Origin: an uncultured virus (IMG/VR IMGVR_UViG_3300015607_003969)
Lineage: Duplodnaviria > Heunggongvirae > Uroviricota > Caudoviricetes
Strand: one strand, 5' to 3'
IMG/VR virus record: IMGVR_UViG_3300015607_003969
Location: 62,001-125,659 of that record
DNA length: 63,659 nt
The notes beneath the pieces were generated by a model. The model was not told the origin of the DNA. It made no database searches and saw only the letters and a list, made by a program, of their open reading frames with translations. The position numbers were made by a program, and so were the translations under genes. This document shows, piece after piece, positions 30,358 through 56,511 of this stretch (positions within the stretch are counted from its first letter, which is position 1; the number at the start of each line of letters is the position of its first letter).

Positions 30358-30378
30358 GCGTCAAACCTACCAGATCTG

Positions 30379-30451
30379 CGAGGGTGGGGGGACTCGAACC
30401 CACAACGCACGGGGATTAAGGCCGTCGTTCTGCCAATTGAACTACACCCTC
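30379..30451 (-). tRNA. Atypical tRNA, anticodon TAA (reads UUA), class I body
   Basis: GAGGGTG/CACCCTC acceptor; GTTC-AATTGGCA-GAAC D arm; ACGGC-CTTAATC-CCCGT; 5-nt variable loop; GTGGG-TTCGAGT-CCCCC; G73; no encoded CCA. Confidence 0.85.
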
Positions 30452-30507
30452 AGGGGGGCCTAAGGCCCCAAAGCTAGTCGTACGGTAGTCGGTTGCGTCG
30501 TCGCTTA

Positions 30508-30912
30508 TAACACGGTGCCGAGATCCTCGTCGTCGAGGAGACCCTCCTTGTGTAGCATCTGCTTCTGCTCCTCCGTAAGAGTGCGGAGCAGCAGAGACAG
30601 CATTTTGGTCCGCGCCCCCGTGTTGGCGTTGTGCAAGGCCTTGAAGGTGTGGACATCAACCTCCCGCACGCACCAGCGCCTGTGTGCGTCGTACGCCTTC
30701 TCGTAGGCGTCCGCAGGGGACAGCCTGCTGTAGATCCCGGGATACGTGGACTCCAGGCGGTTTTTCACCGCCAGGAGAGCATCTCGGTACGTGTAGAAAA
30801 CCTGCTGAGCACGATCGAAATCTAGCTCAGTAGTGTCCAGGACGATCCACACCTGGAACACAGTGCGGGCCCTGAGGGGGCCTCTGTTGTACCCATCTTC
30901 CTTATCAGCCAT
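30508..30912 (-). CDS. Hypothetical protein
   Basis: GGAGG RBS; ends TTA-TAA. Confidence 0.65.
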
Positions 30913-30925
30913 CAAACCTCCGTGA

Positions 30926-31246
30926 TCACAGCCTCAGGGCCAGGGGGAGCTTGCGTACGAGACGCAACGCCTCCGGGCCCAGACACAAGGCTGTAGTCTC
31001 GTTATTCCTGTCAGGCTCCCGAAACTGCACAGAAGGGATCTTGTGCAACTGCGCAGCGAGCTGAAGCTCCTTGAGGTGCTTCTCGCTCGCAACGGACAAC
31101 AAGGCCAGCGTGTTGCTGCTCTCGTACCAGGAGCGGATAAGCTCAGGGTAGTGGATAAACATCTCGACCAGGGCATGGCTGCTCTGCACCGCCTGCTGTC
31201 CTGGAGAGAGGTCCCCCCTCACAACCTGGTAAAGTTTCGGGGCCAC
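30926..31246 (-). CDS. Pth2-like peptidyl-tRNA hydrolase
   Basis: LYQVVRGDLSPGQQAVQSSHA...W...FREPD...TALCLGP...KLPL matches the PTH2 pattern; GGGAGG RBS. Confidence 0.82.
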   Translation of the reverse strand: MAPKLYQVVRGDLSPGQQAVQSSHALVEMFIHYPELIRSWYESSNTLALLSVASEKHLKELQLAAQLHKIPSVQFREPDRNNETTALCLGPEALRLVRKLPLALRL

Positions 31247-31535
31247 CCTTGATCCTCCCCTTCAGGCCGGAGCACCAGGCGGAGAACTCTTCGAGAGGGA
31301 AGTCCTCTTCAGGGAGCAGAGGGGGATCGCTGCAAAGGGTAAACCTGACGTAGGCGGCAAGTGGCGTTCTGCCGTAGTAGGTGGAGGCGTGGACCCTGCG
31401 CTCGATGGTCTCGTGCGCCCTGCCGTGGAGGAAGGCGAGGAAGAGAAGGTGCGCACGGGCGCAGAACCCAAAGGGCTTTTCTTGCAAGCGCTTATGAAGC
31501 GCCTTTTTGAGCTGTTTCTTGTCGCTGTCGGTCAT
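31230..31535 (-). CDS. Hypothetical phage protein
   Basis: ARAHLLFLAFLHGRAHETIE; AGGAG RBS; ends at TTA 31230-31232 (code-11 end 31143). Confidence 0.68.
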
Positions 31536-31582
31536 CTGTAGATCTCCTGGCTGGTTGATGGGTGCAGAACCAGGGCTACAGA
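31535..31582 (-). promoter_or_regulatory. RBS-occluding hairpin (putative translational attenuator)
   Basis: mRNA UCUGUAG (31582-31576) pairs with CUACAGA (31541-31535, includes the A of AUG); CCUGG pairs with CCAGG over the AGGAG RBS. Confidence 0.6.
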
Positions 31583-31614
31583 GGGGGGCCTCGCGGTAGG
31601 TGGATTAACAGCAT
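31576..31614 (-). CDS. Putative leader/arrest peptide MLLIHLPRGPPL
   Basis: atg ctg TTA atc cac cta ccg cga ggc ccc cct ctg tag; RGPP motif; intergenic. Confidence 0.6.
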   Translation of the reverse strand: MLLIHLPRGPPL

Positions 31615-31628
31615 GGGGGTAAGGGTGC

Positions 31629-32243
31629 TCATGAATCCTCCACTGTCAAGCCGAGCTCCGACATCATGGCTCTGCCTTCTTCCGTACAGAAGAAGGCCCC
31701 CTGCACCAGGATCGTCTGGTTCGTAGGTTCAGCTAGCTGGTGCAGGAGGTACTTGCGGCGCAAAAACCTGGCGAGATGTGGCGGCTGATGGGGGAGGTCC
31801 CAGCGGGGGTTGTTTTGGTGGTAGAGCTGCGCGCGGCGCGTAGAGGGGCGCTTCGCAGCTTTGGGCATATCCAAGACGTCCACGTCTACGGTGTGAAACG
31901 TATCAAGGATGATCTCCTTCGTCACCTCGCCCCGGGTAAGAACGATCTTCCGACCCCTTAGCGGCAAGTGCGCGCTGAACCCGTAAAAGGGCAGCGTAAA
32001 GGGCCCGTCGCAAAGCACCACAGGTTCATACCGCGCGAGGGGCGTCACAACGTTGTGGTGCAGGTTCTCCCTGAACAGGTGGGCGATGTGTGCCAGAGCG
32101 TTCTGGGTGTCTATGTAGACACCGTGCACGGACACGATGAGAGGTTTGTTGCGGAACATCTGGAGTAGGTAGGCCTCCAGAAGCCGCTGCTTGTTAACGG
32201 AAGAAGCTCCTCGCACCTCCCCGTACAGTTTTGACAGATCCAT
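31629..32243 (-). CDS. Hypothetical protein
   Basis: 204-aa ORF with GAGG RBS. Confidence 0.62.
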   Translation of the reverse strand: MDLSKLYGEVRGASSVNKQRLLEAYLLQMFRNKPLIVSVHGVYIDTQNALAHIAHLFRENLHHNVVTPLARYEPVVLCDGPFTLPFYGFSAHLPLRGRKIVLTRGEVTKEIILDTFHTVDVDVLDMPKAAKRPSTRRAQLYHQNNPRWDLPHQPPHLARFLRRKYLLHQLAEPTNQTILVQGAFFCTEEGRAMMSELGLTVEDS

Positions 32244-56436: not shown

Positions 56437-56511
56437 TGGGCGCGGCGGGAGGATTTGAACCTCCGTCCTCTAGCTTATGAGGCTAGCGAGCTACCACTGC
56501 TCTACCCCGCG
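56437..56511 (-). tRNA. tRNA with CAT anticodon (Met/fMet-like, atypical)
   Basis: CGCGGGG-TA-GAGC-AGTGGTA-GCTC-G-CTAGC-CTCATAA-GCTAG-AGGAC-GGAGG-TTCAAAT-CCTCC-CGCCGCG-C-CCA. Confidence 0.92.

Follow-up and report, generated by a model that had tools for sequence, protein, structure and literature searches.

A candidate stop-codon-reading cassette with a UAA-anticodon tRNA in a phage genome that ends genes at TTA

We analysed a 63,659-bp stretch of DNA (hereafter, the window), which is the second half of one 125,659-bp contig (61.9% GC) from an uncultured phage of the Caudoviricetes (IMG/VR IMGVR_UViG_3300015607_003969). Near-identical DNA is present in other samples, which are wastewater, activated-sludge, and freshwater metagenomes. 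A first-pass annotation had described five contiguous minus-strand elements at 30379..31614 as a translation module, comprising a leader, a hypothetical protein, a Pth2-like hydrolase, a second hypothetical protein, and a tRNA with the anticodon UAA. All five are present according to sequence, open reading frame (ORF), profile, and tRNA searches, and both hypotheticals do terminate in TTA (Table 1). A gene for an SNF2-type helicase comes after the tRNA. Coordinates of the region follow window numbering unless marked as genome coordinates, and genome-wide tests used the whole 125.7-kb contig.

Table 1. Elements of the tRNA-hydrolase locus in window coordinates.
Feature	Position	Strand	Description and basis
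TTGACA box	31644..31649	-	29 nt 5' of the leader ATG; read from the sequence and recurrent in other leaders
Predicted gated arrest leader	31576..31614	-	M-L-[TTA]-I-H-L-P-R-G-P-P-L-[TAG]; ATG at 31614, CTG, gate TTA 31608-31606, RGPP codons 31593-31582; read from the sequence and by comparison with the sister phage
Hairpin	31535..31582	-	5' arm 31582-31568, 3' arm 31552-31535; minimum-free-energy (MFE) fold
Small helical protein, family A4, 101 aa	31230..31535	-	TTA end 31232-31230; jackhmmer, BLASTP, AlphaFold2 (AF2)
Short Pth2-family hydrolase, 106 aa	30926..31246	-	GTG start, own ribosome-binding site, TGA stop; PF01981
Lineage-specific ORF, 134 aa	30912 (or 30915) to 30508	-	TTA, then directly TAA (to 30505)
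Class-I tRNA, 74 nt, anticodon UAA (30418-30416)	30378..30451	-	ARAGORN, Rfam tRNA; proposed TTA suppressor

TTA behaves as a fourth stop codon in this genome. In 112 long ORFs with high GC at third codon positions, 14 of the 33 in-frame TTA codons fall within the last 10 codons, compared with 3.1% of all codons; for AGA, which ranks second in end enrichment, the share is 11%, and out-of-frame TTA is not concentrated at ORF ends (3/197 and 6/107 in the two alternative frames). A codon-usage score trained on long genes averages 0.03 downstream of TTA, compared with means of 0.30-0.52 downstream of eight control codons. When the gene caller treats TTA as a stop, it predicts 147 genes at 95.5% coverage with a total score of 25076; under table 11 it predicts 138 genes at 93.6% coverage with a score of 23958. 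Thirty-three of the 147 genes are then TTA-terminated, and in-frame TTA is nearly absent from gene bodies. Many of the TTA ends overlap or adjoin a start codon (TTATG or TTA-N-ATG), as TAA does in TAATG; at two successive TTATG junctions (38119 and 37253), table 11 extends the first gene 203 codons into its neighbour. AT-rich gene ends do not account for the pattern, as ATA, AAT, ATT, TAT, TTT, and AAA have no such end enrichment. We also rejected frameshifting at TTA, because start codons and ribosome-binding sites come after the TTA and the P-site codons differ from site to site.

A search with the helicase returned 63 related IMG/VR loci, of which the closest sister is G002, a 177,132-bp genome with terminal repeats (CheckV 100% complete, helicase 60% identical). 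At 46% GC, A-ending codons are common there (CTA 1124, CTG 922), and in-frame TTA occurs 97 times against about 1290 expected; 45 of the 97 fall among the ten final codons. Of the 216 genes called there under a TTA stop, 64 are TTA-terminated. We found 40 orthologue pairs between the two phages. Nine include a TTA-terminated gene and have alignments that reach to eight residues or fewer from each C-terminus: in six of them TTA here corresponds to TGA, TAG, or TAA in the sister, in two the relation is reversed, and in one TTA ends both. Most of the remaining pairs have unaligned tails of equal length. End enrichment, the drop in coding score, gene calling, and orthologue ends thus agree genome-wide with the premise of the first-pass annotation that TTA is a stop. 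In a distant relative (L011), TTA encodes leucine in an invariant helicase motif, so the trait is confined to a sub-lineage. In-frame TTA is also scarce in the helicase loci of several more distant relatives (L008/L013, L024, L029, L046/L047; 0 against 11-14 expected, or 2 against 38), and TTA avoidance may be broader than the TTA-stop lineage.

To our knowledge, a change from sense codon to stop is almost never seen outside organelles, and TTA means leucine elsewhere except in a few of them. NCBI genetic code 23, of Thraustochytrium mitochondria, likewise has TTA as a stop alongside TAA, TAG, and TGA; here, in contrast, the genome is that of a bacteriophage and has a tRNA able to read TTA, and in the sister phage UUG is read by a CAA-anticodon tRNA. 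Full-text literature searches returned nothing on TTA stops in phages. One in-frame TTA stands apart from the otherwise nearly TTA-free gene bodies, at codon 180 of an ORF of 455 aa outside the window (genome 52905-51538, minus strand; L003:16001-17368). On both sides of the TTA this ORF is colinear with one continuous 454-aa protein of the sister phage (E 8e-52), and a ribosome-binding site and a GTG come after the TTA. It may be a client that needs TTA read-through or a split gene, and the two are equally possible.

The UAA tRNA scores 51.1 bits against the Rfam tRNA model RF00005 (cut-off 29) and folds into a cloverleaf in ARAGORN. It is a 74-nt class-I tRNA with a 5-nt variable loop, G73, and no encoded CCA, and its anticodon is complementary to the TTA that ends 33 of the 147 genes in the same genome. 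Among 178 tRNAs collected, its nearest relative is a CUA tRNA (57/74 identical). It occupies the slot that CUA or UUA tRNAs occupy in other loci of this kind, which we call cassettes. A GC hairpin of six pairs with a TTA loop lies directly upstream of it (30455-30470, minus strand); no T-run follows, and the hairpin may be a processing or pause site. Apart from the UAA tRNA, the genome has a single tRNA gene, a tRNA-Met(CAT) whose CCA is encoded (56437-56511, minus strand).

The hydrolase matches PF01981 with 39.2 bits (cut-off 23, E 9.3e-10) over profile positions 2-112 of 115, and its family profile (A3) matches the solved Pth2 chains 2zv3 (E 2.1e-9), 1rzw, 1q7s, and 1wn2. The resemblance to archaeal and eukaryotic Pth2 is thus significant over the whole domain, at the level of both sequence and profile. 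The phage subfamily (74 related protein clusters) is shorter, at about 105 aa, and differs by a four-residue deletion after the conserved Asp and by Gln in place of the Lys-rich loop. The Asp of an EPD motif aligns with the RDAG Asp of 2zv3, and the Lys-rich GKGK is replaced by PGQQ. A further difference from Pth2 is the tight linkage of the phage subfamily to stop-reading tRNAs and the apparent gating of its synthesis by stop codons, both described below.

The 31535 ORF upstream of the hydrolase has a 101-aa product when TTA is read as a stop and a 130-aa product by table 11. The protein has weak but significant similarity to the ORF upstream of the hydrolase in the sister phage (BLASTP E 1e-6), and jackhmmer places relatives of the same family (A4) within 1.5 kb upstream of the hydrolase at 15 loci at E<=1e-7, plus two weaker ones, of 35. 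In line with its earlier listing as a candidate accessory factor, its family adjoins the hydrolase in at least 15 phages, and this recurrence indicates a conserved third protein-level component of the cassette. AF2 models the protein as a bundle of five helices (pLDDT 80); Foldseek gave no match at E<=0.001, a wide structure comparison (VIA) gave a best Z of 5.1, which is in the chance range for helical models, and no Pfam or PHROG family matched. A tblastn search with the family found no match in GenBank phages. About 10 of 16 family members end in EAA, KAA, or VAA, like the terminal alanines of the tmRNA tag, and by this analogy the endings could mark the proteins for proteolysis; the member in the window does not end in this way.

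Pth2-like genes do occur in other phages, as the first-pass annotation had noted: we found the hydrolase at 33 further IMG/VR loci and in 224-231 GenBank phage records, 206 of the latter from Bxz1-group Mycobacterium phages. At 24 of 34 loci, the interval from -1.5 to +2.5 kb around the hydrolase contains a tRNA whose anticodon is stop-reading or UAA (CUA 20, UUA 2, UAA 2), in most cases a short distance downstream and co-oriented. Of the 118 tRNAs in hydrolase loci, 30 have stop anticodons, compared with 3 of 113 in helicase loci. In Mycobacterium phage Astraea (NC_021349), for example, an annotated peptidyl-tRNA hydrolase is followed 306 nt later by a 'tRNA-other (cta)'. The tRNAs are of unrelated types, including both class I and class II and varying at position 73, so it is the kind of anticodon that is conserved and not a tRNA lineage. 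The phages that carry the cassette span 27-69% GC and mostly use TTA as an ordinary codon, frequently so in those of 27-33% GC (e.g., L095, L098, L099, and L101).

The cassette leaders link these tRNAs to a candidate target codon. We found 17 leaders (15 with RGPP and 2 with RAPP) in which a stop codon lies no more than 12 codons before the motif. In all 17, this gate codon is the codon read by the tRNA of the same cassette: TAG with CUA in 14, TAA with UUA in 2, and TTA with UAA in the phage described here. The match at TTA is therefore independent evidence that this phage treats TTA as a stop. Five leaders have tandem gates, two or three in number; a low-GC phage (L101:9609-9660) has three in-frame TAG gates (M-F-K-[TAG]-I-K-V-P-P-[TAG]-V-R-G-P-P-[TAG]). 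The leader in the window also has a longer in-frame start, at 31632. The peptide behind the gate is conserved, reading I-H-L-P-R-G-P-P-L here and L-H-L-G-R-G-P-P-C in the sister phage (full leader M-Y-H-[TAG]-L-H-L-G-R-G-P-P-C), which argues that translation passes through the gate and does not end at it. In 14 of the 17, TTGACA or a sequence differing from it at a single position precedes the leader ATG by 29-32 nt; it is probably a -35 promoter element, and from this distance transcription would begin at the leader ATG or close to it.

A hairpin links the motif to the next gene. In the window, the 5' arm begins at the last base of the RGPP codons and runs downstream, and the 3' arm includes the ribosome-binding site, AGGAG (31548-31544), and reaches the first base of the next ATG (31535); the MFE fold has -24.6 kcal/mol and a z of -1.79. 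In 15 of 15 RGPP leaders, the MFE structure pairs the downstream ribosome-binding site with nucleotides 6-21 counted from the Arg codon. The pairing is kept despite sequence differences among the loci, and GGAGG is often paired with a CCUCC from the Pro-Pro codons. Natural variants from other samples leave the gate TTA and the tRNA anticodon unchanged; one has GTG for the leader ATG, and two fall in paired positions of the 3' arm with the pairing preserved.

The cassette also occurs in an alternative architecture, in which the hydrolase ORF itself opens with ATG, then 0-4 codons and an in-frame TAG ahead of the conserved N-terminus (11 of 28 loci, scored by eye). Astraea is a cultured phage of this type; tblastn of GenBank phages with the helical family identified no cultured phage with the leader architecture. 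In the sister phage, a single in-frame TAG joins the helical-protein ORF to the hydrolase, and the hydrolase ends at TTA directly before a terminator hairpin. Outside the window phage, a UAA tRNA was found in one other cassette (L083, on record G006), as a class-I tRNA at L083:10316-10391 that also has a C31-C39 mismatch. It overlaps the 3' end of the hydrolase ORF, whose TAA stop lies inside the anticodon-loop sequence of the tRNA. The 251-kb record G006 has a tmRNA, 30 tRNAs, and no class-II Leu(UAA).

From these patterns we infer read-through and arrest, and we propose the following working. Ribosomes that initiate at the leader would reach TTA as its third codon. Without an active UAA tRNA they would halt there, leaving the ribosome-binding site and start of the next gene locked in the hairpin. 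If charged tRNA reads the TTA, the ribosome would enter R-G-P-P and arrest on the 5' arm, which would free the ribosome-binding site for translation of the helical protein and probably of the hydrolase after it. Both proteins would thereby be made in proportion to suppressor activity, and most likely they would clear or limit the consequences of read-through, which may consist of peptidyl-tRNA, dropped off or arrested, or of the leader complex in its arrested state. The hydrolase may clear peptidyl-tRNA from read-through or arrest, release the arrested leader, or restrain the suppressor; the fallback of the first-pass annotation, a role in managing side effects, is possible for it. The UAA tRNA most likely reads through the TTA stop rather than causing it, a view suggested by the gate match, by the RGPP or RAPP behind the gate, and by the pairing of the ribosome-binding site across leaders. 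On balance, we favour the reading that the region is the local version of a portable, self-regulating cassette of promoter, gated leader, helical protein, hydrolase, and gate-reading tRNA, and that this cassette was retuned from TAG/CUA to TTA/UAA in the TTA-stop lineage.

Several observations weigh against this reading. The UAA tRNA has U37, in contrast to the A37 of all 33 other cassette tRNAs examined, together with a C31-C39 mismatch and a mismatch in the T-stem, and these features could weaken it. If suppression were efficient, 33 phage proteins would become longer, and in five the extension would exceed 150 residues. The hydrolase in the window is not itself gated but has its own ribosome-binding site and GTG, so any dependence on the leader would be indirect. 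A consensus promoter scan found no promoter in the region. The z of the hairpin is modest, and 11 of 200 shuffled sequences fold equally well. In one contig of low depth from a different sample, the run of RGPP codons is one C short; this may be an assembly error, and the motif would be destroyed if the deletion is real. We recognised no gated leader at L083, where the second UAA tRNA is located, and TTA usage in G006 is ambiguous (27 in-frame, 2 in the last 10 codons), so this locus neither supports nor contradicts the model.

The first-pass annotation had proposed that the module is machinery for release-factor-independent termination at UUA, in which stalling or capture by the tRNA is followed by peptidyl-tRNA drop-off and hydrolysis by the Pth2-like enzyme. 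Both TTA-stop phages examined carry the hydrolase and its helical partner, and no RF-1 domain was found at E<=0.1 in the records G000, G001, G002, and G006, as this idea would have it; nor is there a release-factor or synthetase family at E<=1e-5 among the 147 predicted proteins. However, the complete sister genome ends 64 genes at TTA and, with a set of ten tRNAs that includes Leu(CAA), which reads UUG, and Leu(UAG), contains none with a UAA anticodon. The cassette is also widespread in phages where TTA is a frequent ordinary codon, as well as in Mycobacterium phages, and the conserved peptide behind the gate implies that the gate is read through. The termination model fails because the sister stops at TTA without a UAA tRNA and because the cassette is older and wider than the lineage: it predates the TTA-stop phages and is far more widespread than they are. 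We therefore regard this role as very improbable, and chain release at ordinary TTA stops is left unexplained by the module. The link to TTA stands in so far as the leader gate and the anticodon are matched to it, whereas specificity for TTA stops does not, given that amber and ochre versions are common. The module is thus common in phages that read TTA as leucine, yet it is not missing from relatives with TTA stops, as the sister carries it.

Supply of a leucine tRNA for a rare codon fares no better. A bldA-like tRNA-Leu could serve rare TTA codons in a high-GC host, with the hydrolase as a general housekeeping aid. ARAGORN does label the tRNA Leu, from its anticodon, and available passages of two papers state that phage tRNAs often match codons rare in the host (PMC5852040, PMC6102473), and a passage of a third calls the Pth of such arrays of tRNA genes an 'extra rescue factor' (PMC5966550). 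However, true Leu(UAA) tRNAs in related loci are class II, 82-87 nt long, with A73, whereas this one is of 74 nt with G73 and lacks a long variable arm. The near-absence of TTA from gene bodies would leave such a tRNA little to translate, and the covariation of gate and anticodon would go unexplained. This is the least probable of the explanations that we weighed, and we give it hardly any credence. A more serious candidate, though still an unlikely one, has the hydrolase and its helical partner strip the amino acid or peptide from the suppressor tRNA, such that suppression induces its own inhibitor and settles at a low set-point. Synthesis of the hydrolase would indeed depend on suppression in both architectures, through the leader gate or the N-terminal TAG, and the tight linkage of hydrolase and tRNA despite unrelated tRNA types fits an enzyme that needs a stop-reading tRNA nearby. 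Against this, Pth2 enzymes act on N-blocked and not on free aminoacyl-tRNA. The Gln that replaces Lys of the solved Pth2 GKGK stretch leaves the chemistry uncertain either way.

As part of the favoured cassette reading, the UAA tRNA resembles phage suppressor tRNAs (CUA, UCA, and UUA) in being a phage-borne tRNA that reads a gene-ending codon. It differs from them in that the codon, TTA, is a sense codon in the standard code, and literature searches found no published phage tRNA that reads TTA as a stop. It also invites comparison with bldA, the Streptomyces class-II tRNA-Leu(UAA) that limits translation of rare TTA codons, which lie inside regulatory genes. The high-GC setting, the rarity of TTA, and a dedicated UAA-anticodon tRNA with a predicted regulatory role are shared. 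Unlike bldA, the phage tRNA is class I with G73 and its 5-nt variable loop is not the long variable arm of bldA-type leucine tRNAs, and the TTA codons are at gene ends and in the leader gate. Xanthomonas phage XacN1 has two CUA tRNAs for which its authors, in the available part of their text, found no suppressor targets (PMC5852040); here, in contrast, we identify a candidate target in the leader gate.

The leaders have their own counterparts in arrest peptides. According to passages of the sources, the RAPP/RGPP peptides ApdA, ApdP, and ApcA (SecM-like) regulate downstream genes (PMC12992588; PMC10951233), and RGPP gives the most robust arrest among RAPP-like sequences and is refractory to EF-P (PMC12992588). 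As in that class, the cassettes have a small upstream ORF with RGPP or RAPP, and the predicted arrest site overlaps a hairpin that masks a ribosome-binding site. Unlike in the known leaders, the motif is placed behind a stop codon and would therefore be reached only after read-through by the cassette tRNA. The leader peptide is of 12 residues here and of 12-25 elsewhere, which is too short to include a signal or membrane segment, and in this it departs from the secretory or membrane proteins of the RAPP class. The genes regulated would be those of the Pth2-like hydrolase and helical protein, in place of protein-localisation machinery. The leader thus appears to work like an arrest leader without being a member of the class that monitors Sec and YidC. 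The terms 'phage', 'suppressor', 'stop codon', and 'peptidyl-tRNA hydrolase' are absent from the text of PMC12992588. For cluster C mycobacteriophages, PMC5966550 describes a PTH2-like gene within arrays of tRNA genes, and 'suppressor' and 'CUA' are absent from its available text. The main texts searched have separate mentions of the hydrolase and of suppressor tRNAs, not linked to each other.

The remaining element of the locus, the ORF starting at 30912, had been put forward as a second accessory factor, but it is absent from the 33 other cassette loci and from beside the hydrolase of the sister phage. The 134-aa product has no Pfam, PHROG, or usable Protein Atlas match. Without relatives in the other loci it looks specific to the lineage, and it was apparently inserted between the hydrolase and tRNA genes. 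Inteins occur elsewhere in the genome (L003:4-8415, which is genome 35541-43952 on the minus strand, and L002:7307-10378): a single ORF of 2804 aa has RNA polymerase beta- and beta-prime-type domains together with intein and LAGLIDADG domains, and the large terminase is also intein-bearing. A DNA search of the GenBank phage collection for near relatives gave none except a 60-nt tRNA-like match.

More generally, we tentatively suggest, at somewhat less than even odds, that large phages carry a portable stop-codon-reader cassette that senses their own suppressor, and that here it tracked the change of the TTA code, with tRNA and gate co-evolving. An arrest motif behind a stop codon would be a new input logic for arrest-peptide switches, and such a compact natural read-through sensor could serve as a reporter in genetic-code engineering. 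The phage combines a sense-to-stop reassignment with a tRNA able to undo it, which makes the origin and tolerance of such codes testable. Many phages with the standard code, including cultured Mycobacterium phages, have suppressor tRNAs without a known target, and gate codons, whether they lie in leaders or near the beginning of hydrolase genes, would provide these orphan suppressor tRNAs with a concrete, conserved one.

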